Source: Escherichia coli (GTDB lineage Bacteria; Pseudomonadota; Gammaproteobacteria; Enterobacterales; Enterobacteriaceae). From it: a DNA stretch of 64,000 nt. Below are positions 14,514-46,319 of the stretch, piece by piece (positions within the stretch are counted from its first letter, which is position 1; every line of letters starts with the position of its first letter). Location of the stretch: assembly GCF_024700885.2 (NCBI RefSeq), contig NZ_CP117016.1; one strand, given 5' to 3'. Under the pieces are notes generated by a model, which made no database searches, had not been told where the DNA came from, and saw only the letters and a program-made list of their open reading frames with translations. Position numbers and translations under genes: made by a program.

Positions 14514-14589
14514 TCCTCTGTAGTTCAGTCGGTAGAACGGCGGACTGTTAATCCGTATGTCACTGGTTCGAGTCCAGTCAGAGGAGCCA
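14514..14589 (+). tRNA. asnT: tRNA-Asn (GUU)
   Basis: 76-nt TCCTCTGTAGTTCAGTCGGTAGAACGGCGGACTGTTAATCCGTATGTCACTGGTTCGAGTCCAGTCAGAGGAGCCA; its 3' end is the HPI attachment site. Confidence 0.95.
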
Positions 14590-14750
14590 ATTTTCTGTTT
14601 TCTTGCATCCTTGCGAATCTTTATCTGATGTTGATTCAACAGGTTAGTGTGAAAACTCTTCTCGGTGCATTTTGATTTTACCCTACGCATCGGGAAAAAT
14701 TGGTGGTCAAATCTGGGGTCGGGTTAGTTCGATAATGGAGTGACCCCCAT

Positions 14751-16013
14751 ATATCCCTTACCGACGCAAAAATCCGCACCCTCAAGCCTTCTGATAAACC
14801 CTTTAAAGTCTCCGATTCTCACAGTCTGTATCTGCGGGTCAAGCCGGGTGGCTCCCGCCACTGGTATCTCAAATACCGTATTAGCGGTAAAGAATCCCGC
14901 ATTGCGCTGGGTGCCTATCCAGCCATCTCCCTGTCTGATGCGCGACAGCAACGTGAAGGTATCCGTAAAATGCTGGCGCTGAATATCAACCCGGTACAGC
15001 AGCGGGCTGCTGTACGTGGCTCACGAACACCGGAGAAAGTTTTTAAAAACGTGGCGCTGGCGTGGCATAAAAGTAACAGGAAATGGTCGCAGAACACCGC
15101 CGACCGTCTGCTTGCCAGCCTGAACAATCACATCTTTCCGGTCATCGGGAACCTACCTGTATCAGAACTTAAACCCCGTCATTTCATTGACCTGCAGAAA
15201 GGGATCGAGGAAAAAGGTCTGCTGGAGGTTGCGTCCCGCACACGGCAGCACCTGAGTAACATAATACGCCATGCGGTCCATCAGGAGTTAATCGATACGA
15301 ACCCTGCAGCAAACCTTGGCGGCGTGACCACACCTCCTGTCAGACGGCACTATCCTGCCCTGCCGCTGGAGCGGCTGCCTGAACTGCTTGAACGTATTGG
15401 GGCATATCATCAGGGCCGTGAACTGACCCGGCATGCCGTTCTGCTGATGCTGCATGTGTTCATTCGCTCCAGTGAACTGCGTTTCGCCCGCTGGTCAGAG
15501 ATTGATTTCACAAACCGAGTCTGGACGATACCCGCGACGCGAGAACCCATTATTGGCGTGCATTATTCCGGCCGCGGGGCAAAAATGCGAATGCCGCATA
15601 TCGTCCCCCTCTCAGAACAGTCCATCGCCATTCTGAAACAGATTAAGGATATCACCGGTAATAATGAACTGATCTTCCCCGGCGACCATAACCCGTATAA
15701 GCCAATGTGTGAAAACACGGTCAATAAGGCACTGCGGGTGATGGGTTACGACACGAAAAAGGATATCTGCGGTCACGGCTTCCGGGCAATGGCATGCAGT
15801 GCGCTGATGGAATCGGGTTTATGGGCAAAGGACGCAGTAGAACGCCAGATGAGTCATCAGGAGCGCAATACCGTGCGCATGGCTTATATTCATAAGGCAG
15901 AGCACCTGGAAGCCCGCAAAGCGATGATGCAGTGGTGGTCGGATTATCTGGAAGCATGCCGAGAATCTTATGCACCGCCTTATACAATTGGTAAAAATAA
16001 GTTTATCCCATAG
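14751..16013 (+). CDS. int: P4-family tyrosine integrase of the High-Pathogenicity Island; no canonical start codon in frame
   Basis: Frame open from stop at 14733 to 16013; in-frame N-terminal region ...SLTDAKIRTLKPSDKPFKVSDSHSLYLRVKPGGSRHWYLKYRISGKESRIALGAYPAIS... is the P4-type arm-binding domain, but there is no ATG/GTG/TTG before the Met at 14970 (codon 14751-14753 is ATA). The 5' coordinate is therefore uncertain. Confidence 0.75.
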   Translation: MSLTDAKIRTLKPSDKPFKVSDSHSLYLRVKPGGSRHWYLKYRISGKESRIALGAYPAISLSDARQQREGIRKMLALNINPVQQRAAVRGSRTPEKVFKNVALAWHKSNRKWSQNTADRLLASLNNHIFPVIGNLPVSELKPRHFIDLQKGIEEKGLLEVASRTRQHLSNIIRHAVHQELIDTNPAANLGGVTTPPVRRHYPALPLERLPELLERIGAYHQGRELTRHAVLLMLHVFIRSSELRFARWSEIDFTNRVWTIPATREPIIGVHYSGRGAKMRMPHIVPLSEQSIAILKQIKDITGNNELIFPGDHNPYKPMCENTVNKALRVMGYDTKKDICGHGFRAMACSALMESGLWAKDAVERQMSHQERNTVRMAYIHKAEHLEARKAMMQWWSDYLEACRESYAPPYTIGKNKFIP

Positions 16014-16206
16014 TATACTAACGAATCCCACACTCTGGCAAATTACCACCACCTCCACAGGAGGTGGTTCTATATAGACTTTTATCAACTTCATGACGAA
16101 AAACACCTATTTTATCCCAAAAGAAGACAATAGAGTCACAGAGGAATCAAAGAGCGACTCAATTGTCTTTGGACAGTCTGGTTGTGAGGTTAGAAAACAG
16201 TTACTC

Positions 16207-17511
16207 CTACACCATTAAATAGGGCGCAATGCTCGCTAATTTCTCCCGGGTTTCTGTCAGTTCGCGTTCCGGCGTAGATTGCGCGATGATTCCCGCCCCC
16301 GCCTGTATCCAGCAGCGCTGGCTATCCTGAAATACGGAACGCAGAACTAGCGCCGCATCAAAGCGCGTATCGTCCAGCAGCAGGATTGCGCCGGAATAAA
16401 GCTCTCGCGGCGTCTTCTCAATTTGCATAATCGCGTTCAGAGCAGCATTTTTAGGGATACCTGAGGCGGTAATCGACGGAAACAGCACGGTAAACGCATC
16501 CCAGGCATCCTTGTTTTCCGCAAGCTGACCGCTCACGCCAGACCCCAGATGCTGAACGCTGCCGCGCTGGCGAACCGACATTAAATCTTCAACCACCACG
16601 CTGCCCGGCTGGCAAACAGCCTCCAGTTCAGCAATAGCTTCTTTGACAGAAAGGATATGCTCAAGCACCTCTTTACTGTCGTGCAGCAGTTCTGCCTCTT
16701 TCGCCTTATTATGCTCCGGGTTTCCCATGCGATCGCGGGTGCCCGCAAGCGGTTCAGTGACCACTTTATTGCCCGTCACTGACATCACCAGTTCCGGGCT
16801 AAAGCCCAGCGCTTCGCGTCCTTCCTGACGGAACATAAACGAGCGCACAGGCGTGTTTGCCTGCCGCCCGTATAACAGCGTGGCGGGCATATCAATCCGC
16901 GATGGCAGGGGAATGGCGCGCGAGACAATCACTTTGACATACTCGCCACGGCGGATCTCCGCAACGGCGCGCGCAACCTGTTGTTTATATGCCTCACCAT
17001 TGAGGGCGGTATCCACCGCCAGTGGTGCGTTCTGCGTCGTTGTACCGGCCTCTTTTACCCACTCGCACAAACGTCGGCACCCGTCGGCGGAGTCCGCATA
17101 AACGGTGACATTTCCCTTTTCAAAAATAAGTTCTTCACGGGGAACGGTTAACGTCAGCAGCGGCCACTCCCCGGCGTTAAAGGCAATCCCCCGCGCATGC
17201 GCCGCAAAGTTGAACCCAACCTGTCCATATACCCGACGTCCTTTCACCTGAGGATGCGCCATAAAACGACGCGCGCAGTCGGCAATGGAATCCACCGCCC
17301 ATTTTTGCTCCCCAGCATCATCAATAAATGTCGCCTGCGTTCCGTCGGCATTAATGTGCAGCCGTGCCTGGCACCCTTTGCCTAAATACCAACAGGGTTG
17401 ACGCTCATAGACATAACACTCTTCTTCTGCGAACTGGCGTAAAACGCCAGAAATCGTCGGTAGCCATTGTTCCTCTGGTAACGCCAGATGTAGAAATTCA
17501 CTGATTTTCAT
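16207..17511 (-). CDS. ybtS: salicylate synthase YbtS (Irp9)
   Basis: 434-aa chorismate-utilising enzyme ORF; last gene of the ybtPQXS operon, next to int as in the Yersinia HPI. Confidence 0.9.
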   Translation of the reverse strand: MKISEFLHLALPEEQWLPTISGVLRQFAEEECYVYERQPCWYLGKGCQARLHINADGTQATFIDDAGEQKWAVDSIADCARRFMAHPQVKGRRVYGQVGFNFAAHARGIAFNAGEWPLLTLTVPREELIFEKGNVTVYADSADGCRRLCEWVKEAGTTTQNAPLAVDTALNGEAYKQQVARAVAEIRRGEYVKVIVSRAIPLPSRIDMPATLLYGRQANTPVRSFMFRQEGREALGFSPELVMSVTGNKVVTEPLAGTRDRMGNPEHNKAKEAELLHDSKEVLEHILSVKEAIAELEAVCQPGSVVVEDLMSVRQRGSVQHLGSGVSGQLAENKDAWDAFTVLFPSITASGIPKNAALNAIMQIEKTPRELYSGAILLLDDTRFDAALVLRSVFQDSQRCWIQAGAGIIAQSTPERELTETREKLASIAPYLMV

Positions 17512-17538
17512 CCCTTACCTCTCTGTGTTATTCCCGGA

Positions 17539-18819
17539 TCAATCAATTGCGCTTGTCATCAGTTCTCTTGCCGAATGCAGCCGGATATAAGCAACCCACG
17601 CCGCCAGCAACGTGAATGCCCCGGCAAACAGGAAGCAGGCCGCATAGCCAAAATGTTGAGCAACAACGCCACCGATAACGCCAGCCAGAATGGCGATTGC
17701 CGCGTCAGTACATTGAAAGAGGGTGAAGTCGACACCGGCCTGCAAAGGCGATGAAAGCGACATCAGCGTGGCGTAAAGACAGACCAGCGCGCAGGCCAGC
17801 GAAATGGACTGGACAATGACCAGACACTGGAGAATCTGCAGCAGCAGATGACCCGGCGCCATCATGAGCGTCATCACCACCGCCAGCAGCGCGATCCCCT
17901 GGACGCCATAAGCCGTCAACAGCGCTCTGCCGGGTGAGGTGTATTTCATCAGCAATCCGCCGGCCAGCGTTCCTGCTATGCCCGCTGCAATATTGCCGCC
18001 GCTGAACAGCGCGCCCAATGCGGACATGCTCAACCCATGATCCAACAACAGCGGTGCCAGAAGAGGCAGCACAAACCGCATGCCTGAATTCAGCATCAAT
18101 ACCAGCAGTAAGCCCAGGCGCGCCTGCTTCCTCCTTAGCGCATAACCTAACGCCGGAACATGCGGGATAGTCGCTGTTCGCGTCGGCTCCGTAATGCGCC
18201 ACAGCGGGAGTGACAGCGCCATAATCAGCACCGCCATCATCAGCATGGCGACAGGCCAGCCGGATGCCGCCGACAGCATCAGGAACACCCCGCCGCCGCA
18301 CATCATTCCCAGATAGCTGCCGCCGACCTGCACGCTGTTTCCCCAGCCGTAACCCGTGCGGGTCAGTTGATCGACACAAAAGCCGTCGCTGGCGATATCA
18401 ATGGTGGAGGCGACCGTGCCTGCCACCATAAACAGAACAAATAACGCGACGATTTGCGTATCGGGGAATCCCCCTTCTCGCCCAAACCAGCCAATCGCTG
18501 CGGCAATAGTCAGGATCGCCGCTAGCGCGACCTGACCACGCAGGATTAACATGCGGGAACGGCGTTCCTGGCTACCGGGCGGAAGCCGCCAGCGCTCGAT
18601 CCACGGCGCCCAAATAAACTTCAGCGCCCAGGGCAGCATAAACAGGGTTGTCGCACCGGCAAGCGCCAGCGAACCGCCAGCAGCGCGCACCAGCGCGGGT
18701 AAGGACTGCATAGACAGCGCCGATACCAGACTCTGCGTCACATAGACGCCGGCAATAGCAAAAATCACCCGCCCGGTCGTCAACGTCAGAGGTTTCACAT
18801 TCGACTGAACATCACTCAT
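17539..18819 (-). CDS. ybtX: MFS-type inner-membrane protein YbtX (Irp8)
   Basis: Polytopic membrane protein; start set at internal Met (MSDVQSNVKPLTL...), giving 426 aa and an 8-bp overlap with the ybtQ stop; the 467-aa extended ORF is probably not used. Confidence 0.85.
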   Translation of the reverse strand: MSDVQSNVKPLTLTTGRVIFAIAGVYVTQSLVSALSMQSLPALVRAAGGSLALAGATTLFMLPWALKFIWAPWIERWRLPPGSQERRSRMLILRGQVALAAILTIAAAIGWFGREGGFPDTQIVALFVLFMVAGTVASTIDIASDGFCVDQLTRTGYGWGNSVQVGGSYLGMMCGGGVFLMLSAASGWPVAMLMMAVLIMALSLPLWRITEPTRTATIPHVPALGYALRRKQARLGLLLVLMLNSGMRFVLPLLAPLLLDHGLSMSALGALFSGGNIAAGIAGTLAGGLLMKYTSPGRALLTAYGVQGIALLAVVMTLMMAPGHLLLQILQCLVIVQSISLACALVCLYATLMSLSSPLQAGVDFTLFQCTDAAIAILAGVIGGVVAQHFGYAACFLFAGAFTLLAAWVAYIRLHSARELMTSAID

Positions 18820-20614
18820 GCACCCACTCTCCAGACGCGGAACCCCCGTCGTCGCGCCACACGCGCGCGGCCATTTGCGCCTGCCACAGCGCCTGATAAC
18901 GTCCATGATGTGAGAGCAATTGCGCATGAGTACCCTGCTCAACCACCTGTCCCTCTTCCATCACCAGAATGTTTCCGGCCCCGGCGATGGTGGATAAACG
19001 GTGAGCGATGATAATCACCGTCCGGTTGTGAACCAGGTTATCGATCGCTTTTTGCACCGCCAGCTCGCTTTCAATATCCAGCGCGGCAGTCGGTTCATCG
19101 AGAATGACGACCGGCGCGTTTTTCAATAACGCTCTGGCAATGGAAATCCGCTGGCGCTCGCCGCCCGATAGCTGGCCGCCCATCTCTCCCATTGGCGTCA
19201 GCCAGCCTTGCGGAAGACGGGAAATAAACTCAAGGCACTGCGCCGCGCGGGCGGCCTCTTCTACCTCCTGCCGCGTCGCCTGTGGGCGCGCGATACGGAT
19301 ATTCGCCAGCAGCGTGTCATCAAACAGCCAGACATCCTGGAAAACAACAGAAATCAGGCTATTGAGCTGTTCCGGCGTCAGGCGGCGAATATCGACGCCG
19401 CCAATAGAAATCTGCCCTTGCTGCGGATCGGCATAGCGCATTAACAGTTTGGTGACCGTAGTTTTGCCTGCGCCGGAGGCACCCACCAGCGCGCTCATAC
19501 TGGCTGCCGGGAACGTCAAAGAAACATGATTAAGCGCGTGGCCGTCACCTTCTTCGTAGCGATAGCTGACGTTGTCAAAGCGGATATCGTAACGTTCCGG
19601 CATCTCGCTTTGCTCTGCGACGGGAAGCGGTGCTATCGCCATAAACTGCTCAATCCGTTGCAGGGCGCTGGCGATCAGTTCCACAACCGAGGTGTAGCTG
19701 ATAAACATCGCCATCGGTTCTGCGAAGCGCATAATCATCGCGACGGCGGCAATCAAAAAGGCGAGGTTCAGAGTGCCCGTCACTACCCAGACGATCCCGG
19801 ATAACACCACCACCTGTAGGCCCAACTCCACGACGCTGGCGATCAGCATCGTTGCGCCAGCGCCCTGACGGTGAGTGCGGGTCTGTAAGTTTTCCAGCGC
19901 ATTGAAATGCGCCAGCAGCGCCCGGCTTTTATCGGCATCGCTGCCGCAGGTGCGCAATACCATCATCCCCTGAGCAAATTCAACGATATCGCCGCTCAGA
20001 CGCTGGTGCGCTTCCCCCAGCGTCTGCATTTGTCGCCGCATCGCCGGGCGGCGCCAGTAATAAAACGGCACCAGCAGAGGGAAGATCAGCAACATCACCA
20101 GCCCCAGCCGCCAGTCTATCCACAATGTCGCCAGCGACGCCGTCAGCGGCGTGACAATGGTGAGCAGCAAAATATTGGCTATCGCAATAACATAATTGAG
20201 GTTTTCATCCACGCTGCCCAGCAGCAAGGCGTTCATTTCACCCGCCCTGCCGCGCTGGAGCTTATCCAGCGGCACGCGGCGTAACTGCTCGCCAAGTCGC
20301 AGGCGCAACTCATGGGTAGCCTGCGCCAGATGACCACGGTATTCAAAGCCCAGGCCATACCAGCGTAGCACCAGCGTCACAATTGCGGCGACGCTGAAGG
20401 CCATAGCCCAGTTAAGAAGTTGCGGCGCGTCTCCCCGTAACAGCGCATCAATGATCGGATAAAGACAGGCAAAGGCGATCCCCTGCATGAATGCCGCCAG
20501 CAACAGCGCCAGCATACTGCGTCGCAGCATCCTGGCCTGACTGCCAACGCTGGAGATAAGCTGGCGCCAGATGACGCGCCAGGCCAGGTTATCCGCAGGA
20601 TTATTGTCTTTCAT
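18812..20614 (-). CDS. ybtQ: ABC transporter permease/ATPase fusion YbtQ (Irp7)
   Basis: 600 aa from internal Met; N-terminal six-TM exporter-type domain plus Walker A GASGAGKTT and signature LSGGERQRISIARAL; overlaps ybtP stop by 14 bp. Confidence 0.9.
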   Translation of the reverse strand: MKDNNPADNLAWRVIWRQLISSVGSQARMLRRSMLALLLAAFMQGIAFACLYPIIDALLRGDAPQLLNWAMAFSVAAIVTLVLRWYGLGFEYRGHLAQATHELRLRLGEQLRRVPLDKLQRGRAGEMNALLLGSVDENLNYVIAIANILLLTIVTPLTASLATLWIDWRLGLVMLLIFPLLVPFYYWRRPAMRRQMQTLGEAHQRLSGDIVEFAQGMMVLRTCGSDADKSRALLAHFNALENLQTRTHRQGAGATMLIASVVELGLQVVVLSGIVWVVTGTLNLAFLIAAVAMIMRFAEPMAMFISYTSVVELIASALQRIEQFMAIAPLPVAEQSEMPERYDIRFDNVSYRYEEGDGHALNHVSLTFPAASMSALVGASGAGKTTVTKLLMRYADPQQGQISIGGVDIRRLTPEQLNSLISVVFQDVWLFDDTLLANIRIARPQATRQEVEEAARAAQCLEFISRLPQGWLTPMGEMGGQLSGGERQRISIARALLKNAPVVILDEPTAALDIESELAVQKAIDNLVHNRTVIIIAHRLSTIAGAGNILVMEEGQVVEQGTHAQLLSHHGRYQALWQAQMAARVWRDDGGSASGEWVHE

Positions 20615-22403
20615 TTTCCACCACCTCTTCCTGTGTTCCACCCGGCACCCAATGCTGCGCCTGCTGATAGTGTTGCCAGAGCCGTTGATACAGGCCGCCC
20701 TGCGCCAACAGTTGCGTATGGTTCCCCATTTCCCTGAGTTGTCCGTCGGAAAACAGCAATATCACATCGGCCTGAGTCACCATTGAGAGACGATGCGCGA
20801 CCATGATGACCGTCCGGCCACGCATGGCCGCCGCGAGCGCCTTGATAAGCGCCGCTTCGTTTTCCGGGTCAGCAAACGCCGTCGCCTCATCGAGCACCAG
20901 GATGGGGCGATCCTGCAAAAGCGCCCGGGCGATAGTAATGCGCTGCCGCTGGCCGCCGGAGAGAAATACCCCACGTTCCCCGACTCGAGTGTTGTAACCT
21001 TCTGGCAGAGCGCTAATAAAATCATGGGCCTGCGCCACTCTGGCCGCCGCTATAACCGCCTCCAGCGGCGTATCCGGCGCGCCCAGACGAATGTTATTGG
21101 CTATCGTGTCGGCAAAAAGGAAGTTGTCCTGAAACACAAACGAGAGTTGCTTCATCAGGGTGTCCGTCTGCATATCACGCAGATCCACGCCGCCAATACG
21201 GATATGGCCTTTGTCCGGGTCGGCGTAACGCAGCAGCAAGCGCGCCACGGTGCTTTTTCCGGCGCCGCTTGGCCCGACCAGCGCCACAATTTGCCCGGCA
21301 GGCACATGAAAGCTCACCTCCTGCAACGCGGCGCCAGTACGCGCTTGCGGATAATGAAAGCTCACCTGCTCAAAGGTAATGCTCGCCTCTTGCGGCTGCT
21401 GGTCAGACTGCGGCAGCGATAACTCCGGCATCGCGAGAACCTGATAAATACGCTGAATGCTTAAACGCGTTTGCGCGACCAGGTTATTGAGCATCATCAT
21501 TGGCATTACGGCTTCGGCCATTCCGCTGCCCAGCAGTAAAACGGCCACCCACGCGATAAAATCGAAACTGCCATAGTGCAACAGGCCGTATCCCGACCAG
21601 ATCAGGACAAACAGGGTCGGGAGAGGATTCAGAATCGAGAAGGAAAAACGCGCTGAAAAACCGGCTTTGCGATACCAGGTTTTGAGCACATCGACCCACT
21701 CTTCAAGGGCGCGTTGATAGCGCAAAAAACTGGTGCTGCCGCTATCAAACGTTCTCACCACGGGCATGGCCTGCACGAACTCAATAACCGCCGCGCTAAC
21801 CTGCTCGCGCGCCTTATGATAACGCTGAGCCATATTTTCCGAACGCTGGCGGGCGAGCACGAGAACAACCGATCCAAACGCCAGTACCCCCAGCGTCGCG
21901 ATTGCCAGCCGCCAGTCCAGCCAGAACAAGATAACGATTGTCGCCAGCGGCATGATGATCGCGCGGGCATAGAGCGGCGTGCTGTCGGCCACAAAAATAT
22001 GTAACGACTTCACGTCATCCAGCATCACTTTCGCCACTGACCCGCTGCCCATTTGCTGTAACACGCCAGGCGGAAGCTGCAATGCTTTACGGGCTAACCT
22101 GCTGCGCAGAATGTTCTCCAGATGAAAAGCCGCGTAATGAGAGGTGTTGAACGCCTGTAAGCGCAGAACAAAAGTTAAGACCACGCAGCCGATCACGCCG
22201 CCCAGCGGCCAGGCCGGAATAGCGTCAGGCGTCGCGCGAATGTCACGCAGGCTCCACGCCAGAAAAAGGAGCGCCCCCAGGCTGGTTAATGCCGCCAGCC
22301 CCGCCAGCGCCATAGCTAAAATAACCTTCCTGCGAACCGGTGTAATCACCTGCCAGAGAGGAAATCGGGACAGCGATTCAGTATTGGATGATTGAGATGA
22401 CAT
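20601..22403 (-). CDS. ybtP: ABC transporter permease/ATPase fusion YbtP (Irp6)
   Basis: 600-aa ORF; Walker A GPSGAGKST, signature LSGGQRQRITIARAL; first gene of ybtPQXS, divergent from ybtA. Confidence 0.9.
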   Translation of the reverse strand: MSSQSSNTESLSRFPLWQVITPVRRKVILAMALAGLAALTSLGALLFLAWSLRDIRATPDAIPAWPLGGVIGCVVLTFVLRLQAFNTSHYAAFHLENILRSRLARKALQLPPGVLQQMGSGSVAKVMLDDVKSLHIFVADSTPLYARAIIMPLATIVILFWLDWRLAIATLGVLAFGSVVLVLARQRSENMAQRYHKAREQVSAAVIEFVQAMPVVRTFDSGSTSFLRYQRALEEWVDVLKTWYRKAGFSARFSFSILNPLPTLFVLIWSGYGLLHYGSFDFIAWVAVLLLGSGMAEAVMPMMMLNNLVAQTRLSIQRIYQVLAMPELSLPQSDQQPQEASITFEQVSFHYPQARTGAALQEVSFHVPAGQIVALVGPSGAGKSTVARLLLRYADPDKGHIRIGGVDLRDMQTDTLMKQLSFVFQDNFLFADTIANNIRLGAPDTPLEAVIAAARVAQAHDFISALPEGYNTRVGERGVFLSGGQRQRITIARALLQDRPILVLDEATAFADPENEAALIKALAAAMRGRTVIMVAHRLSMVTQADVILLFSDGQLREMGNHTQLLAQGGLYQRLWQHYQQAQHWVPGGTQEEVVENERQ

Positions 22404-22481
22404 GGGAGTAACTGAATTTCCTGATGAATTTTTACGGACGCCAAAAACGACAATTCAGGGTGGCGTTCTGAGAATTAATGT

Positions 22482-22536
22482 GAATAATAACCATTATCAA
22501 TAACTCATCTACCCCATTCGGTTCTATTTATACCCG
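22482..22536 (-). promoter_or_regulatory. ybtP promoter region: Fur-box-like sequence plus YbtA repeat (RS) in reverse orientation
   Basis: gaataataaccattatc (22482-22498) resembles the Fur consensus; the reverse complement of 22509-22536 (cgggtataaatagaaccgaatggggtag) parallels the RS palindromes upstream of irp2 and fyuA. Confidence 0.45.
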
Positions 22537-22569
22537 CATTGGTCTAAGCCACAGGGAGATAACCAGGTC

Positions 22570-23529: not shown

Positions 23530-23563
23530 CCGGGGTCGCGCCCCCCTAAACTCCTCCCTGACA

Positions 23564-23598
23564 GAGGCCCGGATACCCCATCCGGGCCTCTGTTCTTT
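23564..23598 (+). terminator. rho-independent terminator after ybtA
   Basis: Inverted repeat agaggcccgga / tccgggcctct followed by gttcttt. Confidence 0.5.
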
Positions 23599-23611
23599 CC
23601 GCCTGTTACCA

Positions 23612-23676
23612 ACCCGAAACGGGCATAAATAAACCCGTTTCGGGTAGCATCCAATTGTTAATAATTATTATTCTCA
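23612..23676 (+). promoter_or_regulatory. irp2 promoter: 38-bp RS palindrome (YbtA site) plus Fur-box-like sequence
   Basis: acccgaaacgggcataaataaacccgtttcgggtagca (23612-23649) is near-identical to the element at 42895-42932 upstream of fyuA; AT-rich Fur-like ttgttaataattattattctc at 23656-23676. Confidence 0.55.
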
Positions 23677-23719
23677 TATGAGTAATGCTTTTCGGTAAGA
23701 CGTGCCATCAGGAGGAAGA

Positions 23720-29700: not shown

Positions 29701-29827
29701 CCTGACGTTGCTTGACCTCTTCACCCACCCTTCTCCTGCTGCCCTGGCCGATTATCTGGCCGGCGTCGCCACGGTGGAGAAAACAAAACGACCTCGCCCT
29801 GTTCGCCGTCGTCAGCGGCGGATATAG
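23720..29827 (+). CDS. irp2: yersiniabactin NRPS HMWP2 (ArCP-Cy-A-PCP-Cy-PCP)
   Basis: 2035 aa from Met at 23720 (strong SD aggagg); carrier-protein Ser motifs [24 protein letters not shown]; cyclisation DxxxxD motifs DLLIMDASS and DNLLLDGLS; adenylation core [12 protein letters not shown]. Confidence 0.92.
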
Positions 29828-38900: not shown

Positions 38901-39406
38901 AAGGCGAGCAGGTTCGGATGGTGTTAATCGATCCCGTGTGCCGACAGGATTTCTGTTGCGAAAACCGGGCGGCCCTGCTGCGCCTGTTAGCCGAAGGACA
39001 AACGCCTCTGGCACTGCCCGAACATTTCGACCAGCAGACGCCCGACAGCCAGCTTGCCGACTTTATTAGCCTCGCTAAAACGGCCGGTATGGTGTCGCAA
39101 AACCTGACGCTGCAAGCGGCAGAAACGTGGCTCGACAACATCGCGCATCTGCTGCGTTTACTGACTGAGCATACGCCGGGCGAAAGCGTTCCGGTCCCCT
39201 GTCTCATGGTGTATGCCGCCGGGAGACCCGCGCACTGGACGCCAGCAGAAACCGAGTGGCAGGGCTGGATAAACAACGCCGACGACGCTGTGATTGAAGC
39301 CAGCCACTGGCAAATCATGATGGAAGCCCCCCACGTTCAGGCTTGTGCGCAACACATTACGCGCTGGCTTTGCGCAACCTCAACGCAACCGGAGAACACG
39401 TTATGA
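29915..39406 (+). CDS. irp1: yersiniabactin PKS/NRPS hybrid HMWP1 (KS-AT-MT-KR-ACP-Cy-MT-PCP-TE)
   Basis: 3163-aa ORF; KS active site TACSSSLVA, AT GHSVGE, SAM motifs ILEVGGGTGG and ILEVGAGTAA, KR GAFGGLGR, ACP LGMDSLL, Cy DLLQFDVQS, PCP GGDSLMATRM, TE GWSYGA. Confidence 0.95.
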   Translation: MDNLRFSSAPTADSIDASIAQHYPDCEPVAVIGYACHFPESPDGETFWQNLLEGRECSRRFTREELLAVGLDAAIIDDPHYVNIGTVLDNADCFDATLFGYSRQEAESMDPQQRLFLQAVWHALEHAGYAPGAVPHKTGVFASSRMSTYPGREALNVTEVAQVKGLQSLMGNDKDYIATRAAYKLNLHGPALSVQTACSSSLVAVHLACESLRAGESDMAVAGGVALSFPQQAGYRYQPGMIFSPDGHCRPFDASAEGTWAGNGLGCVVLRRLKDALLSGDPIISVILSSAVNNDGNRKVGYTAPSVAGQQAVIEEALMLAAIDDRQVGYIETHGTGTPLGDAIEIEALRNVYAPRPQDRRCALGSVKSNMGHLDTAAGIAGLLKTVLAVSRGQIPPLLNFHTPNPALKLEESPFTVPVSAQAWQDEMRYAGVSSFGIGGTNCHMIVASLPDALNARLPNTDGGRKSTALLLSAASDSALRRLATDYAGALRKNADASDLAFTALHARRLDLPFRLAVPLNRETADALSTWASEKSGAQVYSGHGASGKQVWLFTGQGSHWRTMGQTMYQHSTAFADTLDRCFSACSEMLTPSLREAMFNPDSAQLDNMAWAQPAIVAFEIAMAAHWRAEGLKPDFAIGHSVGEFAAAVVCGHYTIEQVMPLVCRRGALMQQCASGAMVAVFADEDTLMPLARQFELDLAANNGTQHTVFSGPEARLAVFCATLSQHDINYRRLSVTGAAHSALLEPILDRFLDTCAGLHAEPGQIPIISTLTADVIDESTLNQADYWRRHMRQPVRFIQSIQVAHQLGARVFLEMGPDAQLVACGQREYRDNAYWIASARRNKEASDVLNQALLQLYAAGVALPWADLLAGDGQRIAAPCYPFDTERYWKERVSPACEPADAALSAGLEVASRAATALDLPRLEALKQCATRLHAIYVDQLVQRCTGDAIENGVDAMTIMRRGRLLPRYQQLLQRLLNNCVVDGDYRCTDGRYVRARPIEHQQRESLLTELAGYCEGFQAIPDTIARAGDRLYEMMSGAEEPVAIIFPQSASDGVEVLYQEFSFGRYFNQIAAGVLRGIVQTRQPRQPLRILEVGGGTGGTTAWLLPELNGVPALEYHFTDISALFTRRAQQKFADYDFVKYSELDLEKEAQSQGFQAQSYDLIVAANVIHATRHIGRTLDNLRPLLKPGGRLLMREITQPMRLFDFVFGPLVLPLQDLDAREGELFLTTAQWQQQCRHAGFSKVAWLPQDGSPNAGMSEHIILATLPGQAVSAVTFTAPSEPVLGQALTDNGDYLADWSDCAGQPEQFNARWQEAWRLLSQRHGDALPVEPPPVAAPEWLGKVRLSWQNEAFSRGQMRVEARHPAGEWLPLSPAAPLPAPQTHYQWRWTPLNVASIDHPLTFSFSAGTLARSDELAQYDIIHDPHASSRLMIVEESEDTLALAEKVIAALTASAAGLIVVTRRAWRVEENEALSASHHALWALLRVAANEQPERLLAAIDLAENTPWETLHQGLSAVSLSQRWLAARGDTLWLPSLSPNTGCAAELPANVFTGDSRWHLVTGAFGGLGRLAVNWLREKGARRIALLAPRVDESWLRDVEGGQTRVCRCDVGDAGQLATVLDDLAANGGIAGAIHAAGVLADAPLQELDDHQLAAVFAVKAQAASQLLQTLRNHDGRYLILYSSAAATLGAPGQSAHALACGYLDGLAQQFSTLDAPKTLSVAWGAWGESGRAATPEMLATLASRGMGALSDAEGCWHLEQAVMRGAPWRLAMRVFTDKMPPLQQALFNISATEKAATPVIPPADDNAFNGSLSDETAVMAWLKKRIAVQLRLSDPASLHPNQDLLQLGMDSLLFLELSSDIQHYLGVRINAERAWQDLSPHGLTQLICSKPEATPAASQPEVLRHDADERYAPFPLTPIQHAYWLGRTHLIGYGGVACHVLFEWDKRHDEFDLAILEKAWNQLIARHDMLRMVVDADGQQRILATTPEYHIPRDDLRALSPEEQRIALEKRRHELSYRVLPADQWPLFELVVSEIDDCHYRLHMNLDLLQFDVQSFKVMMDDLAQVWRGETLAPLAITFRDYVMAEQARRQTSAWHDAWDYWQEKLPQLPLAPELPVVETPPETPHFTTFKSTIGKTEWQAVKQRWQQQGVTPSAALLTLFAATLERWSRTTTFTLNLTFFNRQPIHPQINQLIGDFTSVTLVDFNFSAPVTLQEQMQQTQQRLWQNMAHSEMNGVEVIRELGRLRGSQRQPLMPVVFTSMLGMTLEGMTIDQAMSHLFGEPCYVFTQTPQVWLDHQVMESDGELMFSWYCMDNVLEPGAAEAMFNDYCAILQAVIAAPESLKTLASGIARHIPRRRWPLNAQADYDLRDIEQATLEYPGIRQARAEITEQGALTLDIVMADDPSPSAAMPDEHELTQLALPLPEQAQLDELEATWRWLEARALQGIAATLNRHGLFTTPEIAHRFSAIVQALSSQASHQRLLRQWLQCLTEREWLIREGESWRCRIPLSEIPEPQEACPQSQWSQALAQYLETCIARHDALFSGQCSPLELLFNEQHRVTDALYRDNPASTCLNRYTAQIAALCSAERILEVGAGTAATTAPVLKATRNTRQSYHFTDVSAQFLNDARARFHDESQVSYALFDINQPLDFTAHPEAGYDLIVAVNVLHDASHVVQTLRRLKLLLKAGGRLLIVEATERNSVFQLASVGFIEGLSGYRDFRRRDEKPMLTRSAWQEVLVQAGFANELAWPAQESSPLRQHLLVARSPGVNRPDKKAVSRYLQQRFGTGLPILQIRQREALFTPLHAPSDAPTEPAKPTPVAGGNPALEKQVAELWQSLLSRPVARHHDFFELGGDSLMATRMVAQLNRRGIARANLQDLFSHSTLSDFCAHLQAATSGEDNPIPLCQGDGEETLFVFHASDGDISAWLPLASALNRRVFGLQAKSPQRLATLDQMIDEYVGCIRRQQPHGPYVLAGWSYGAFLAAGAAQRLYAKGEQVRMVLIDPVCRQDFCCENRAALLRLLAEGQTPLALPEHFDQQTPDSQLADFISLAKTAGMVSQNLTLQAAETWLDNIAHLLRLLTEHTPGESVPVPCLMVYAAGRPAHWTPAETEWQGWINNADDAVIEASHWQIMMEAPHVQACAQHITRWLCATSTQPENTL

Positions 39407-40503
39407 TGCCGTCCGCCTCCCCAAAACAACGCGTACTGATTGTGGGCGCCAAATTTGGCGAAATGTACCTGAATGCCTTTATGCAGCCCCCGGAGGGGCT
39501 GGAACTGGTCGGCCTGCTGGCGCAGGGAAGCGCCCGTTCAAGAGAGCTGGCTCATGCGTTTGGCATTCCGCTGTATACCTCGCCGGAACAGATAACCAGG
39601 ATGCCGGATATCGCCTGTATTGTCGTGCGTTCGACCGTCGCCGGAGGAACCGGTACGCAGCTTGCCAGACACTTTCTGACGCGCGGCGTACACGTCATTC
39701 AGGAGCATCCCCTCCACCCGGATGACATCAGTTCCTTACAAACGCTGGCGCAGGAACAGGGCTGCTGCTATTGGGTAAACACGTTTTATCCGCATACGCG
39801 CGCGGGACGCACATGGCTTCGCGATGCGCAGCAGCTGCGTCGCTGTCTGGCTAAGACGCCGCAGGTGGTCCACGCCACCACCAGCCGACAGTTGCTCTAC
39901 TCCACTCTGGATTTGTTGTTGCTGGCTCTGGGCGTTGATGCCGTCGCCGTGGAGTGCGACGTGGTTGGCAGCTTTAGCGATTTTCACTGTCTGAGACTCT
40001 TCTGGCCGGAGGGAGAAGCCTGCCTGCTGCTTCAGCGCTATCTCGATCCTGACGATCCAGATATGCATAGCCTTATCATGCACCGCCTGCTGCTGGGCTG
40101 GCCGGAAGGTCATCTTTCGCTGGAGGCGAGCTACGGCCCCGTCATCTGGTCATCCAGCCTGTTTGTCGCAGACCATCAGGAGAACGCCCACAGCCTCTAC
40201 CGCAGACCGGAGATCCTGCGCGATCTGCCGGGTCTGACGCGCAGCGCGGCGCCCCTGAGCTGGCGCGACTGCTGCGAAACCGTCGGGCCGGAGGGCGTCA
40301 GCTGGTTGCTACACCAGTTGCGCAGCCATCTGGCGGGCGAACATCCACCAGCGGCCTGCCAAAGCGTACATCAGATCGCGTTATCACGTTTATGGCAGCA
40401 GATTTTACGTAAGACCGGCAATGCGGAGATCAGACGCCTGACGCCGCCGCACCACGACCGGTTAGCCGGTTTCTACAACGATGATGATAAGGAGGCGCTG
40501 TGA
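39403..40503 (+). CDS. ybtU: thiazolinyl reductase YbtU (Irp3)
   Basis: About 366 aa from Met overlapping the irp1 stop (ttATGATG); N-terminal NAD(P)-binding-like VLIVGAKFGEMY. Confidence 0.85.
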   Translation: MMPSASPKQRVLIVGAKFGEMYLNAFMQPPEGLELVGLLAQGSARSRELAHAFGIPLYTSPEQITRMPDIACIVVRSTVAGGTGTQLARHFLTRGVHVIQEHPLHPDDISSLQTLAQEQGCCYWVNTFYPHTRAGRTWLRDAQQLRRCLAKTPQVVHATTSRQLLYSTLDLLLLALGVDAVAVECDVVGSFSDFHCLRLFWPEGEACLLLQRYLDPDDPDMHSLIMHRLLLGWPEGHLSLEASYGPVIWSSSLFVADHQENAHSLYRRPEILRDLPGLTRSAAPLSWRDCCETVGPEGVSWLLHQLRSHLAGEHPPAACQSVHQIALSRLWQQILRKTGNAEIRRLTPPHHDRLAGFYNDDDKEAL

Positions 40504-41303
40504 CGCAATCTGCAATGTGCATACCGCTGTGGCCCGCCCGGAACGGCAATACTGCGCATCTGGTCATGTGCCCTTTCGCTGGCGGCAGCAGTAGCGCGTT
40601 TCGCCACTGGCAAGCTGAGCAACTGGCTGATTGCGCGCTTTCTCTGGTGACCTGGCCGGGGCGCGATCGCCTTCGCCATCTGGAACCGCTCAGAAGCATT
40701 ACACAACTGGCGGCACTGCTGGCGAACGAGCTGGAAGCATCCGTATCGCCTGACACGCCGCTTTTACTCGCCGGGCACAGCATGGGGGCGCAGGTGGCGT
40801 TTGAAACCTGCCGACTTCTGGAGCAACGGGGGCTTGCGCCACAAGGACTGATTATTTCCGGGTGCCATGCCCCGCATCTGCATTCTGAACGCCAGCTCAG
40901 CCATCGCGATGATGCCGACTTTATCGCTGAGCTGATAGACATTGGCGGATGTTCTCCTGAACTGCGGGAAAACCAGGAATTAATGTCGCTGTTTCTTCCT
41001 CTTCTGCGCGCTGATTTTTACGCCACCGAGAGCTATCACTACGACTCGCCCGACGTCTGTCCGCCGCTGCGCACGCCTGCGCTGTTATTGTGCGGCAGCC
41101 ACGATCGCGAAGCCTCCTGGCAGCAGGTCGATGCCTGGCGTCAGTGGCTGAGCCACGTTACAGGCCCGGTGGTGATTGACGGCGATCATTTCTATCCCAT
41201 TCAACAAGCCCGGTCCTTTTTTACGCAGATTGTCCGCCATTTTCCCCACGCATTTTCTGCAATGACCGCGTTGCAAAAACAGCCCAGTACTTCAGAAAGG
41301 TGA
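40500..41303 (+). CDS. ybtT: type II thioesterase YbtT (Irp4)
   Basis: 267-aa ORF with GxSxG nucleophile GHSMGAQVAFE; GTG start overlapping the ybtU stop (GTGA). Confidence 0.88.
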   Translation: MTQSAMCIPLWPARNGNTAHLVMCPFAGGSSSAFRHWQAEQLADCALSLVTWPGRDRLRHLEPLRSITQLAALLANELEASVSPDTPLLLAGHSMGAQVAFETCRLLEQRGLAPQGLIISGCHAPHLHSERQLSHRDDADFIAELIDIGGCSPELRENQELMSLFLPLLRADFYATESYHYDSPDVCPPLRTPALLLCGSHDREASWQQVDAWRQWLSHVTGPVVIDGDHFYPIQQARSFFTQIVRHFPHAFSAMTALQKQPSTSER

Positions 41304-41306
41304 CGC

Positions 41307-42884
41307 ATGAATTCTTCCTTTGAATCTCTGATTGAACAGTATCCCTTACCCATTGCCGAACAGTTGCACCACTGGGCGGCCCGTTATGCCTCGCGAATTG
41401 CCGTCGTTGATGCAAAGGGGTCGTTAACCTACAGCGCGCTTGATGCACAAGTTGACGAACTTGCCGCAGGTCTGTCATCACTGGGTTTGCGTTCGGGGGA
41501 GCATGTAATTGTGCAGCTTCCCAACGACAATGCGTTTGTTACCCTGCTGTTCGCCTTGTTAAGACTGGGCGTTATCCCCGTGCTGGCGATGCCCTCGCAA
41601 CGGGCGCTGGATATCGACGCGCTGATTGAGCTGGCGCAACCCGTCGCTTACGTTATTCACGGGGAAAACCACGCAGAGCTGGCCCGACAGATGGCGCACA
41701 AACACGCCTGCTTGCGTCATGTTCTGGTCGCTGGAGAGACCGTGAGCGACGATTTTACGCCGCTCTTCTCCCTTCACGGTGAGCGACAGGCATGGCCGCA
41801 GCCTGATGTTTCCGCCACCGCGTTGTTGTTGCTCTCAGGCGGCACAACCGGCACGCCCAAACTCATCCCGCGCCGACATGCCGACTATAGCTATAACTTC
41901 AGCGCTTCTGCTGAACTGTGCGGCATCAGCCAACAGAGCGTGTATCTCGCCGTCCTCCCGGTGGCGCATAACTTTCCGCTGGCCTGCCCCGGTATTCTGG
42001 GAACGCTTGCCTGCGGCGGAAAAGTGGTGCTGACCGACAGCGCCAGCTGTGATGAGGTGATGCCTTTAATCGCGCAGGAAAGAGTGACTCACGTCGCCCT
42101 GGTTCCGGCGCTGGCGCAATTATGGGTGCAGGCCAGGGAGTGGGAAGACAGCGACCTTTCGTCGCTGCGCGTCATTCAGGCAGGCGGCGCCCGGCTCGAC
42201 CCGACGCTTGCTGAGCAGGTTATCGCCACCTTTGACTGTACCCTGCAACAGGTTTTCGGTATGGCGGAAGGCCTGCTCTGTTTTACCCGGCTGGACGATC
42301 CGCATGCCACCATTCTCCACAGCCAGGGGCGCCCGTTGTCCCCTCTGGATGAAATCCGCATCGTTGATCAAGACGAGAACGACGTCGCGCCGGGCGAAAC
42401 CGGGCAATTGTTAACGCGCGGCCCTTATACCATTTCGGGCTATTACCGCGCCCCTGCCCACAACGCGCAGGCCTTTACCGCGCAAGGGTTTTACCGCACA
42501 GGCGACAATGTCAGGCTGGATGAGGTGGGGAACCTGCACGTTGAGGGACGCATAAAAGAGCAGATCAACCGCGCCGGAGAAAAAATAGCCGCGGCTGAAG
42601 TGGAATCGGCACTGCTGCGTTTAGCGGAAGTGCAAGATTGCGCGGTGGTCGCCGCGCCGGACACGCTGCTTGGCGAGCGGATTTGCGCGTTTATCATCGC
42701 GCAGCAGGTGCCAACTGACTATCAGCAGTTGCGTCAACAACTGACCCGTATGGGGCTCAGCGCGTGGAAAATTCCTGACCAAATCGAGTTTCTGGACCAC
42801 TGGCCGCTCACCGCCGTCGGCAAGATAGACAAAAAACGCCTGACGGCTCTCGCCGTCGACCGTTATCGCCATTCTGCCCAATAA
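41307..42884 (+). CDS. ybtE: salicyl-AMP ligase YbtE (Irp5)
   Basis: 525-aa stand-alone adenylation enzyme; core motif SGGTTGTPKLIPRRH and C-terminal GKIDKKRL. Confidence 0.92.
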   Translation: MNSSFESLIEQYPLPIAEQLHHWAARYASRIAVVDAKGSLTYSALDAQVDELAAGLSSLGLRSGEHVIVQLPNDNAFVTLLFALLRLGVIPVLAMPSQRALDIDALIELAQPVAYVIHGENHAELARQMAHKHACLRHVLVAGETVSDDFTPLFSLHGERQAWPQPDVSATALLLLSGGTTGTPKLIPRRHADYSYNFSASAELCGISQQSVYLAVLPVAHNFPLACPGILGTLACGGKVVLTDSASCDEVMPLIAQERVTHVALVPALAQLWVQAREWEDSDLSSLRVIQAGGARLDPTLAEQVIATFDCTLQQVFGMAEGLLCFTRLDDPHATILHSQGRPLSPLDEIRIVDQDENDVAPGETGQLLTRGPYTISGYYRAPAHNAQAFTAQGFYRTGDNVRLDEVGNLHVEGRIKEQINRAGEKIAAAEVESALLRLAEVQDCAVVAAPDTLLGERICAFIIAQQVPTDYQQLRQQLTRMGLSAWKIPDQIEFLDHWPLTAVGKIDKKRLTALAVDRYRHSAQ

Positions 42885-42894
42885 GCGCAAACCG

Positions 42895-42964
42895 ACCCGA
42901 AACAGGTTGAAATAAACCCGTTTCGGGTAGCACTACTATTAGAAATAGTTATCATTTTCAATTC
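42895..42964 (+). promoter_or_regulatory. fyuA promoter: RS palindrome (YbtA site) plus Fur box
   Basis: acccgaaacaggttgaaataaacccgtttcgggtagca (42895-42932) and ttagaaatagttatcattttcaattc (42939-42964) with Fur-consensus-like core. Confidence 0.55.
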
Positions 42965-43014
42965 ACCATTGTCGGTATTTTTGGCGTTTCGCCGTCTTAC
43001 AGGGACTCACAACA

Positions 43015-45036
43015 ATGAAAATGACACGGCTTTATCCTCTGGCCTTGGGGGGATTATTGCTCCCCGCCATTGCTAATGCCCAGACTTCACAGCAAGACGA
43101 AAGCACGCTGGTGGTTACCGCCAGTAAACAATCTTCCCGCTCGGCATCAGCCAACAACGTCTCGTCTACTGTTGTCAGCGCGCCGGAATTAAGCGACGCC
43201 GGCGTCACCGCCAGCGACAAACTCCCCAGAGTCTTGCCCGGGCTCAATATTGAAAATAGCGGCAACATGCTTTTTTCGACGATCTCGCTACGCGGCGTCT
43301 CTTCAGCGCAGGACTTCTATAACCCCGCCGTCACCCTGTATGTCGATGGCGTCCCTCAGCTTTCCACCAACACCATCCAGGCGCTTACCGATGTGCAAAG
43401 CGTGGAGTTGCTGCGAGGCCCACAGGGAACGTTATATGGCAAAAGCGCTCAGGGCGGGATCATCAACATCGTCACCCAGCAGCCGGACAGCACGCCGCGC
43501 GGCTATATTGAAGGCGGCGTCAGTAGCCGCGACAGTTATCGAAGTAAGTTCAACCTGAGCGGCCCCATTCAGGATGGCCTGCTGTACGGCAGCGTCACCC
43601 TGTTACGCCAGGTTGATGACGGCGACATGATTAACCCCGCGACGGGAAGCGATGACTTAGGCGGCACCCGCGCCAGCATAGGGAATGTGAAACTGCGTCT
43701 GGCGCCGGACGATCAGCCCTGGGAAATGGGCTTTGCCGCCTCACGCGAATGTACCCGCGCCACCCAGGACGCCTATGTGGGATGGAATGATATTAAGGGC
43801 CGTAAGCTGTCGATCAGCGATGGTTCACCAGACCCGTACATGCGGCGCTGCACTGACAGCCAGACCCTGAGTGGGAAATACACCACCGATGACTGGGTTT
43901 TCAACCTGATCAGCGCCTGGCAGCAGCAGCATTATTCGCGCACCTTCCCTTCCGGTTCGTTAATCGTCAATATGCCTCAGCGCTGGAATCAGGATGTGCA
44001 GGAGCTGCGCGCCGCAACCCTGGGCGATGCGCGTACCGTTGATATGGTGTTTGGGCTGTACCGGCAGAACACCCGCGAGAAGTTAAATTCAGCCTACGAC
44101 ATGCCGACAATGCCTTATTTAAGCAGTACCGGCTATACCACCGCTGAAACGCTGGCCGCATACAGTGACCTGACCTGGCATTTAACCGATCGTTTTGATA
44201 TCGGCGGCGGCGTGCGCTTCTCGCATGATAAATCCAGTACACAATATCACGGCAGCATGCTCGGCAACCCGTTTGGCGACCAGGGTAAGAGCAATGACGA
44301 TCAGGTGCTCGGGCAGCTATCCGCAGGCTATATGCTGACCGATGACTGGAGAGTGTATACCCGTGTAGCCCAGGGATATAAACCTTCCGGGTACAACATC
44401 GTGCCTACTGCGGGTCTTGATGCCAAACCGTTCGTCGCCGAGAAATCCATCAACTATGAACTTGGCACCCGCTACGAAACCGCTGACGTCACGCTGCAAG
44501 CCGCGACGTTTTATACCCACACCAAAGACATGCAGCTTTACTCTGGCCCGGTCGGGATGCAGACATTAAGCAATGCGGGTAAAGCCGACGCCACCGGCGT
44601 TGAGCTTGAAGCGAAGTGGCGGTTTGCGCCAGGCTGGTCATGGGATATCAATGGCAACGTGATCCGTTCCGAATTCACCAATGACAGTGAGTTGTATCAC
44701 GGTAACCGGGTGCCGTTCGTACCACGTTATGGCGCGGGAAGCAGCGTGAACGGCGTGATTGATACGCGCTATGGCGCACTGATGCCCCGACTGGCGGTTA
44801 ATCTGGTCGGGCCGCATTATTTCGATGGCGACAACCAGTTGCGGCAAGGCACCTATGCCACCCTGGACAGCAGCCTGGGCTGGCAGGCGACTGAACGGAT
44901 GAACATTTCCGTCTATGTCGATAACCTGTTCGACCGTCGTTACCGTACCTATGGCTACATGAACGGCAGCAGCGCCGTCGCGCAGGTCAATATGGGTCGC
45001 ACCGTCGGTATCAATACGCGAATTGATTTCTTCTGA
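43015..45036 (+). CDS. fyuA: TonB-dependent yersiniabactin/pesticin outer-membrane receptor FyuA (Psn)
   Basis: 673-aa ORF with N-terminal signal peptide, plug and beta-barrel pattern, C-terminal aromatic residue (...NTRIDFF). Confidence 0.92.
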   Translation: MKMTRLYPLALGGLLLPAIANAQTSQQDESTLVVTASKQSSRSASANNVSSTVVSAPELSDAGVTASDKLPRVLPGLNIENSGNMLFSTISLRGVSSAQDFYNPAVTLYVDGVPQLSTNTIQALTDVQSVELLRGPQGTLYGKSAQGGIINIVTQQPDSTPRGYIEGGVSSRDSYRSKFNLSGPIQDGLLYGSVTLLRQVDDGDMINPATGSDDLGGTRASIGNVKLRLAPDDQPWEMGFAASRECTRATQDAYVGWNDIKGRKLSISDGSPDPYMRRCTDSQTLSGKYTTDDWVFNLISAWQQQHYSRTFPSGSLIVNMPQRWNQDVQELRAATLGDARTVDMVFGLYRQNTREKLNSAYDMPTMPYLSSTGYTTAETLAAYSDLTWHLTDRFDIGGGVRFSHDKSSTQYHGSMLGNPFGDQGKSNDDQVLGQLSAGYMLTDDWRVYTRVAQGYKPSGYNIVPTAGLDAKPFVAEKSINYELGTRYETADVTLQAATFYTHTKDMQLYSGPVGMQTLSNAGKADATGVELEAKWRFAPGWSWDINGNVIRSEFTNDSELYHGNRVPFVPRYGAGSSVNGVIDTRYGALMPRLAVNLVGPHYFDGDNQLRQGTYATLDSSLGWQATERMNISVYVDNLFDRRYRTYGYMNGSSAVAQVNMGRTVGINTRIDFF

Positions 45037-45044
45037 TTATTGTA

Positions 45045-45074
45045 AAAGGGATACCGAAAAGGTATCCCTTTTAC
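45045..45074 (+). terminator. hairpin terminator downstream of fyuA
   Basis: aaaagggatacc-gaaaa-ggtatcccttttac, 9 bp after the fyuA stop; the 3' T-tract is short. Confidence 0.45.
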
Positions 45075-45606
45075 ACCACTAGTTAAAACCAGTAACTCAG
45101 CAGAGTCGCAAAAAATATTAATCCATAGTGATTATTTAAACAATGAAATTGCGATTAGGATAAATAGATTTAACTTTCTCGTTCCTTTCTCTCCTTATAC
45201 TAAAGAAATAATCATATCAAAATAAAAATTCACAACAGTGCAACATTAAAAAATACAACCAACAAACAATCCTATATACAAGGCACATCTCCAGAATATA
45301 AAAGCACAGACAAACAACCTAAAAAAAACAACCCCATACATATAAATTATTTTATAGGTAAAATAGATTATATATTCTCATAGCTACCACAAACTATACT
45401 AGCCTGAACTATATTTATTCTGCTGCAATCAATGCATACATAACACAAATATCACTCAGGTACACTACTCAAACCACGCTGGGATTTTTCCTCAAGTTAT
45501 AATCATCACCCCGAAAATCATTCGGCATTTACTCATTAAATAGTCACCCCAGGTGATGCTGCCAACTTACTGATTTAGTGTATGATGGTGTTTTTGAGGT
45601 GCTCCA

Positions 45607-46304: not shown

Positions 46305-46319
46305 GTTGGAGTCATTACC

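Follow-up and report, generated by a model that had tools for sequence, protein, structure and literature searches.

An apparently immobilised yersiniabactin High-Pathogenicity Island at asnT in an Escherichia coli chromosome

Organization of the locus

The stretch of DNA analysed here, called the window throughout, comprises 64,000 nucleotides (64 kb) of the Escherichia coli contig NZ_CP117016.1 (assembly GCF_024700885.2). Between the tRNA-Asn gene asnT and a copy of the insertion sequence IS1 lies an island of 30,961 bp (14591-45551) that is almost certainly the Yersinia High-Pathogenicity Island (HPI) in its E. coli form, an immobilised remnant of an integrative element targeting asn tRNA genes that has kept a complete yersiniabactin cargo. 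The yersiniabactin island at asnT is an ordinary feature, a well-described and already known system that brings no new biology. An initial annotation made from the letters of the window had said as much, and rightly; 2232 of 5,426 complete E. coli genomes (41%) cover at least 80% of 14400-39399. Our additions to the known picture are all small: the true right end of the island, a series of nested IS1 deletions, and an ATA allele of the integrase gene.

Megablast searches of this collection of 5,426 genomes with 14400-39399 and 39400-56000 returned the chromosome of E. coli MLI114, a human stool isolate from Mali, at 100% identity over the full length (41.6 kb). Gene names and coordinates were taken from the RefSeq annotation of this identical record and converted to window positions. 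The features of the island and its borders are listed below, with the source of each assignment in brackets.

14514-14589, + strand: tRNA-Asn (GTT) gene asnT, the integration site (ARAGORN, Rfam)
14751-16013, + strand: int, P4-type tyrosine integrase, 420 codons (RefSeq, NCBIfam integrase domain)
16207-22313, - strand: ybtPQXS operon (RefSeq)
16207-17511, - strand: ybtS, salicylate synthase (RefSeq, NCBIfam)
17539-18819, - strand: ybtX, major facilitator superfamily (MFS) transporter (RefSeq)
18812-20614, - strand: ybtQ, half of an inner-membrane ATP-binding cassette (ABC) importer (RefSeq)
20601-22313, - strand: ybtP, half of an inner-membrane ABC importer (RefSeq)
22314-22569, no strand: divergent ybtP/ybtA promoter region (Fur-box scoring)
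22570-23529, + strand: ybtA, AraC-type activator of the ybt operons, 319-aa open frame (RefSeq name)
23608-23675, + strand: predicted irp2 promoter elements (repeat family and Fur-box scoring)
23720-29827, + strand: irp2, encoding HMWP2, 2035 aa (RefSeq, Pfam, PDB)
29915-39406, + strand: irp1, encoding HMWP1, 3163 aa (RefSeq, Pfam, motifs)
39403-40503, + strand: ybtU, thiazolinyl reductase (RefSeq, NCBIfam, PDB)
40500-41303, + strand: ybtT, type II thioesterase (RefSeq; GHSMG motif found)
41307-42884, + strand: ybtE, salicyl-AMP ligase (RefSeq)
42891-42959, + strand: predicted fyuA promoter elements (repeat family and Fur-box scoring)
43015-45036, + strand: fyuA, TonB-dependent outer-membrane receptor for ferric yersiniabactin, also the pesticin receptor (RefSeq, PDB, NCBIfam)
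~45049-45077, + strand: fyuA terminator hairpin (sequence)
45078-45551, no strand: AT-rich remnant of the right arm of the island (genome matches, absence from K-12)
45552-46319, + strand: IS1 (IS1A type, 768 bp) (RefSeq, sequence)
46319-46645, - strand: yeeL' remnant, glycosyltransferase family 9, C-terminus lost (RefSeq, K-12 comparison)

Eleven ybt, irp and fyuA genes form four operons beside int, and their layout agrees with the ybt locus of Y. pestis and Y. pseudotuberculosis, which consists of psn, irp2-irp1-ybtUTE, ybtA and ybtPQXS (PMC10136090). The initial annotation had read the genes as int, ybtS-ybtX-ybtQ-ybtP, ybtA, irp2, irp1, ybtU, ybtT, ybtE and fyuA, in canonical order and orientation, and the RefSeq coordinates place them in exactly this way. 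Our own translation of the 12 genes, irp1 and irp2 among them, contained no internal stop and gave lengths that agree with the RefSeq annotation, which carries no pseudogene flag on any ybt, irp or fyuA gene of MLI114; the earlier impression that the biosynthetic genes are free of frameshifts was therefore correct. A scan of the 12 island proteins against NCBIfam yielded generic families and no Ybt-specific names (salicylate synthase, thiazolinyl imide reductase, TonB-dependent siderophore receptor), so that the specific Ybt names used here rest on the identical RefSeq record and on the PDB identities described below. Rfam, at its gathering thresholds, reported no RNA within the island other than asnT.

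The island has a G+C content of 58.0%, compared with 47.1% in the downstream flank (46320-59000), and the GC profile runs at 0.55-0.62 across ~17-44 kb and at ~0.45-0.50 outside, in keeping with the roughly 30 kb of GC-rich DNA first described between asnT and IS1. Three features that define an HPI are thus found together: a G+C content above that of the host, an asn tRNA gene as integration site, and an adjacent P4-type integrase gene. The original assignment to a yersiniabactin HPI at asnT is upheld by the RefSeq names on the identical record, by near-identity to PDB chains, by the full domain sets of HMWP1 and HMWP2, and by synteny with K-12.

Yersiniabactin genes and their predicted control

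FyuA differed at 1 of 651 aligned residues (99.8% identical) from PDB 4EPA, a chain named 'Pesticin receptor', YbtS at 2 of 433 residues from 5JY9, with the Irp9 chain 2FN0 nearly as strong a match, and YbtU at about 10 of 365 residues from 4GMF (YbtU/Irp3). HMWP2 matched the structures of Cy1 (7RY6), Cy2 (7JTJ), PCP1 (5U3H) and ArCP (2N6Z) at more than 2 bits per residue. The comparison covered FyuA, YbtS, YbtU and fragments of HMWP2. We take the chains compared (pesticin receptor, Irp9, YbtU/Irp3 and HMWP2) to originate from Yersinia. The near-identity of FyuA, YbtS, YbtU and HMWP2 to these chains runs counter to the possibility, named at the outset, that the Ybt, Irp and FyuA proteins might show only distant similarity to known ones.

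The two large synthetases were run against Pfam in overlapping pieces. HMWP2 has the order ArCP-Cy1-A-PCP1-Cy2-PCP2, in which the A domain contains a methyltransferase-like insert: ArCP at 22-82, Cy1 at 150-535, A at 575-1008 and, past the embedded insert at 1182-1279, again at 1348-1382, PCP1 at 1412-1474, Cy2 at 1530-1905, and PCP2 at 1952-2013. Carrier serines lie at 52, 1439 and 1977, the Cy motifs read DLLIMDASS and DNLLLDGLS, and the core motifs of the A domain were found. HMWP1 follows the order KS-AT-MT-KR-ACP-Cy3-MT-PCP3-TE (KS 27-515, AT 551-846, MT 1093-1194, KR 1559-1729, ACP 1823-1888, Cy3 1948-2266, MT 2593-2693, PCP3 2832-2894, TE from 2915), with the motifs QTACSSS in KS, GHSVG in AT, Ser1853 in ACP, DLLQFDVQS in Cy3 (Cy pattern DxxxxDxxS) and GWSYG in TE. 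The PCP3 motif GGDS places its serine at 2858 in our own translation. Both domain orders and the active-site residues are those that characterize the HPI enzymes, and the Pfam and motif checks confirm the earlier statement that the domain motifs of every nonribosomal peptide synthetase (NRPS) and polyketide synthase (PKS) module are intact.

Control regions were predicted by scoring the Fur consensus, 19 positions long, along all 64 kb. Just three positions scored 14/19 or higher: 22480 and 22486, which overlap, and 23657. The best match of the window, at 22480-22498 (15/19), is a predicted Fur box in the divergent ybtP/ybtA promoter; a second predicted box, 23657-23675 (15/19), falls in the irp2 promoter, and a Fur-box-like site, 42941-42959 (13/19), in the fyuA promoter. 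YbtA activates the promoters of the ybt operons. Upstream of both irp2 (23608-23649) and fyuA (42891-42932) lies a 42-nt box, 88% identical between its two copies, that holds the inverted repeat CCCGAAAC...GTTTCGGG; this repeat resembles the YbtA boxes. At the level of consensus, then, candidate Fur- and YbtA-controlled promoters are present in the island. The four ybt operons are known to be repressed by Fur (PMC10136090), and the predicted promoter boxes fit this published picture; YbtA would activate, and Fur repress, the four operons.

By homology with the established yersiniabactin pathway (PMC10136090), YbtS would convert chorismate to salicylate, which YbtE would adenylate and load onto the ArCP of HMWP2. 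HMWP2 would then condense and cyclise two cysteines, the PKS part of HMWP1 would contribute a malonyl unit, reduced and bis-methylated, and the NRPS part of HMWP1 a third cysteine, and YbtU would reduce the middle thiazoline ring. The TE of HMWP1 would release the product, YbtT would edit misprimed carriers, and ferric yersiniabactin would be taken up through FyuA, in a TonB-dependent manner, and then through YbtPQ. YbtX has been linked to zinc uptake (PMC10136090). Neither the island nor the 64-kb window contains a gene for a phosphopantetheinyl transferase; in E. coli the priming enzyme is EntD or ClbA, encoded outside the island (PMC3708854).

We infer that the island directs production of the siderophore, and its regulation, from gene content, open frames, motifs and promoter boxes. 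Analysis of a sequence is by itself no proof of production, and a cluster that is structurally intact could be a silent relic, impaired by missense mutations, by loss of regulation or by want of a priming enzyme. The location of the phosphopantetheinyl transferase outside both island and window (PMC10136090, PMC3708854) is compatible with such a relic, as are E. coli records in which irp2, irp1, ybtU and ybtE are frameshifted. Given that all frames, catalytic motifs and predicted promoter boxes are intact here, we nevertheless regard a silent cluster as unlikely. YbtS, YbtU, YbtT and FyuA are moreover among the products whose RefSeq protein accessions recur in other strains, and entD is part of the E. 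coli core genome (PMC3708854).

The left border and the integrase gene

Homology with the serU-mtfA-asnT region of K-12 continues to 14593 and then ends, which places the insertion immediately 3' of asnT. A 17-bp att core, CCAGTCAGAGGAGCCAA, lies at 14574-14590 and constitutes attL, and int begins 161 bp downstream of asnT. When up to 3 mismatches were allowed, copies of this core were found in the window only in the four asn tRNA genes; no copy outside them was detected that could serve as attR, and the island is accordingly not flanked by direct repeats. The other three asn tRNA genes identified by ARAGORN, asnW (51346-51421), asnU (53170-53245) and asnV (55578-55653), carry the identical 17-bp core and are unoccupied. 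The ICE-type island (ICE, integrative and conjugative element) of strain ECOR31, of the E. coli reference (ECOR) set, is inserted at asnV (PMC2606025).

The start codon of int (14751-14753) is ATA, not ATG, although RefSeq still annotates a full-length coding sequence. The next in-frame ATG, at 14970, would give a product of 347 aa, and because of the ATA codon a generic list of open reading frames (ORFs) shows just this 347-aa frame. ATA is a very weak initiator of translation. In three other E. coli islands an ATG occupies the same position. The exact 59/60-mer carrying the ATA was present in 860 of the 2009 E. coli genomes that have this 5' region of int, and ATA is therefore a common allele of the gene.

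The right border and loss of mobility

On this side homology with K-12 is not regained until 46320, within yeeL, and the yeeL' remnant is where chromosomal DNA begins again beyond the island. The initial annotation had drawn the end of the island at 45077, where only the fyuA terminator hairpin ends; DNA specific to the island reaches 45551. The additional tail (45078-45551) measures 474 bp, and the entire interval from the fyuA stop codon to IS1 (45037-45551) 515 bp, with 31% GC. This interval is present in 2256 of the 5,426 E. coli genomes, about as many as carry the island, is absent from K-12, and follows fyuA on ybt plasmids of K. pneumoniae as well, and on these grounds we assign 45078-45551 to the island. 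The tail contains no credible ORF, all being 31 aa or shorter, and its promoter and terminator signals do not exceed those expected from shuffled sequence.

To represent the missing right arm we used pBio19 (NZ_CP096811.1), a conjugative IncF plasmid of K. pneumoniae whose ybt locus is ~99.5% identical over fyuA and the tail; the region of this plasmid past fyuA presumably resembles the right arm of Yersinia. On pBio19 the tail leads into a hypothetical gene, an AlpA-family gene, TraR and IS100, none of which is present in the window. Between fyuA and IS1 there is no excision factor of the Hef/AlpA type, no ORF there exceeding 31 aa, and no transfer or conjugation gene was found from fyuA to shiA, where the order is fyuA, tail, IS1, yeeL', shiA. 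The AlpA family is that of the Hef excision factor, which HPI excision in Yersinia requires (PMC2704930). The description of the island as complete thus applies to the siderophore core and fails for the element, whose right arm, attR and excision factor are gone.

These borders also bear on the proposal that the island is still mobile, excised by Int and Hef between attL and attR in the manner of the Y. pseudotuberculosis HPI, the ECOR31 ICE or the Klebsiella ICEKp. A full-length integrase frame beside asnT, an intact attL core and three more unoccupied asn tRNA genes nearby are what such an element would display. The absence of any second att core outside the tRNA genes effectively refutes it, and no AlpA/Hef-type gene or longer ORF past fyuA, no transfer genes up to shiA, an int that starts with ATA and a right arm truncated by IS1 all point the same way, as does the published fixed state of the E. 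coli island (PMC2606025); we consider present mobility extremely improbable. In all HPI-positive ECOR strains except ECOR31 the fyuA-side border is deleted, the direct repeat lost and the island fixed (PMC2606025). Since the mobility parts have decayed to the point that only attL is left, passive transfer together with flanking DNA, through homologous recombination, would be the one way left for the island to spread.

The nested IS1 deletions

The 9-bp sequences flanking IS1 differ, GTCACCCCA on the left and CCGTATTGC on the right, so that there is no target-site duplication, as expected of an IS1-associated deletion. The element stands at the site of a deletion that took the remainder of the island tail, yeeJ, which encodes an inverse-autotransporter adhesin, and the 3' part of yeeL. 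Only 3 complete genomes, MLI114, HSP60 and B19695, contain the left junction of IS1 as a single unbroken match. Their right junctions, expressed as K-12-equivalent positions of the locus, differ, lying at 10142 in HSP60, where yeeL is intact, at 10877 in B19695, and at 11004 in the window, the last being found in MLI114 alone. A common left junction with three different right junctions indicates nested deletions that proceeded from one fixed end of IS1. B19695 has a second IS1, which is flanked by a 9-bp target duplication.

Strain Z1323CEC0013 (NZ_CP148427.1), in which the match ends at the fyuA terminator, was considered as a carrier of an ICE-type island and rejected: an IS5-family element lies directly past the terminator and is followed by yeeL', the mark of an independent, IS5-mediated deletion. 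Its irp2, irp1, ybtU and ybtE are flagged as frameshifted, through either real decay or assembly error.

Decay of the mobility functions is seen in these data as loss of attR and Hef, the change of the int start from ATG to ATA, and the lineage-specific nested IS1 deletions, which also removed the adhesin gene yeeJ. A tentative extension, which we think rather doubtful, is that in the E. coli HPI the mobility module is being taken apart stepwise with the cargo under purifying selection, and that the ATA allele may be a selected 'locking' mutation and not the product of neutral decay.

Comparison with known systems

The closest counterpart is the fixed HPI of E. coli, found in most ECOR and extraintestinal pathogenic strains (Schubert et al. 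2009, PMC2606025), with which the present island has the asnT site and the gene set in common; the sequences are nearly identical, and both lack the direct repeat on the fyuA side. The fyuA-side border deletion that reaches into the adjacent backbone, typical of this form, is found here with a larger, IS1-associated deletion on top of it: the standard form, as in strain B771, keeps a tail of ~1 kb fused to the interior of yeeJ, whereas here IS1 cuts the tail after 515 bp.

With the HPI of Y. pestis and Y. pseudotuberculosis (PMC10136090) the island has in common the four-operon layout, the gene order, the asn tRNA site and the P4-type integrase. Identity to the PDB chains of the pesticin receptor, Irp9 and YbtU/Irp3 is 97-99.8%, and Fur boxes are likewise predicted at the promoters. 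In contrast to the Yersinia island, however, the AT-rich right-hand arm, Hef, IS100 and attR are missing and the start codon of int is mutated, and in place of the Yersinia YbtD the E. coli host supplies EntD or ClbA (PMC3708854). The ICE-type HPIs (ECOR31 at asnV, Klebsiella ICEKp) and the ybt plasmids have the same ybt core and the same first ~500 bp past fyuA, but they extend beyond it, and none of that further DNA is present in the window, which has neither a conjugation and DNA-processing module nor an attR downstream of fyuA.

A search across genome contigs with FyuA as query found five loci, all in species representatives of Klebsiella, Raoultella and Salmonella diarizonae; their FyuA proteins are 92-97% identical and the DNA of the loci 86-97%, and the loci part from the window sequence directly past the fyuA terminator. 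The much closer match of FyuA to the pesticin receptor chain places the island in the Yersinia/E. coli lineage. A different thiazoline siderophore cluster (pyochelin-, piscibactin- or Klebsiella-lineage ybt) shares its domain logic, and HMWP2 does align to the pyochelin enzyme PchE (7EMY, dihydroaeruginoic acid synthetase) at 749 bits, but the FyuA identities refute this assignment, to which we give next to no credence.

Nothing observed contradicts the identification of the region as an immobilised HPI with a complete cargo, which we hold with near certainty, although some reservations go with it. The comparison with Yersinia rests on PDB chains known by molecule name, and not on Yersinia DNA. 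The product of irp1 has a RefSeq protein accession different from that of strain B771, and missense changes in the present allele could still impair yersiniabactin production. Finally, some integrase may still be made, the ATA codon initiating weakly.

Neighbouring DNA

Only one gene, mtfA, separates the HPI from a second accessory element. Positions 1-13405 of the window are occupied by the early half of a lambdoid prophage inserted at the tRNA-Ser gene serU (13433-13522), a site at which K-12 has no prophage. It comprises a frameshifted integrase gene (12355-13405), a DUF4224 gene, an exonuclease gene (9652-12093), dicB with the DicF RNA (8956-9007), hokD/sok (~3012-3335) and an antiterminator gene (19-840), and in MLI114 the prophage extends past the window start into lysis, head and tail genes. 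At the other end, the DNA that follows cobU-cobS-cobT (~59100-64000) is a decayed patch in which the cobalamin biosynthesis, phosphotriesterase-related and gamma-glutamyltransferase genes are all partial and are accompanied by transposase pseudogenes of IS4, IS3 and ISL3. The same arrangement of this patch occurs in another strain.

Significance

The IS1-linked loss of yeeJ and the non-ATG start of int are the only strain-specific points; they provide lineage markers and an example of how the island becomes fixed. The island itself is an established contributor to the fitness and virulence of extraintestinal pathogenic E. coli, through the acquisition of iron and zinc by yersiniabactin, and its presence implies that the source strain, identical to MLI114, carries this fitness and virulence trait.

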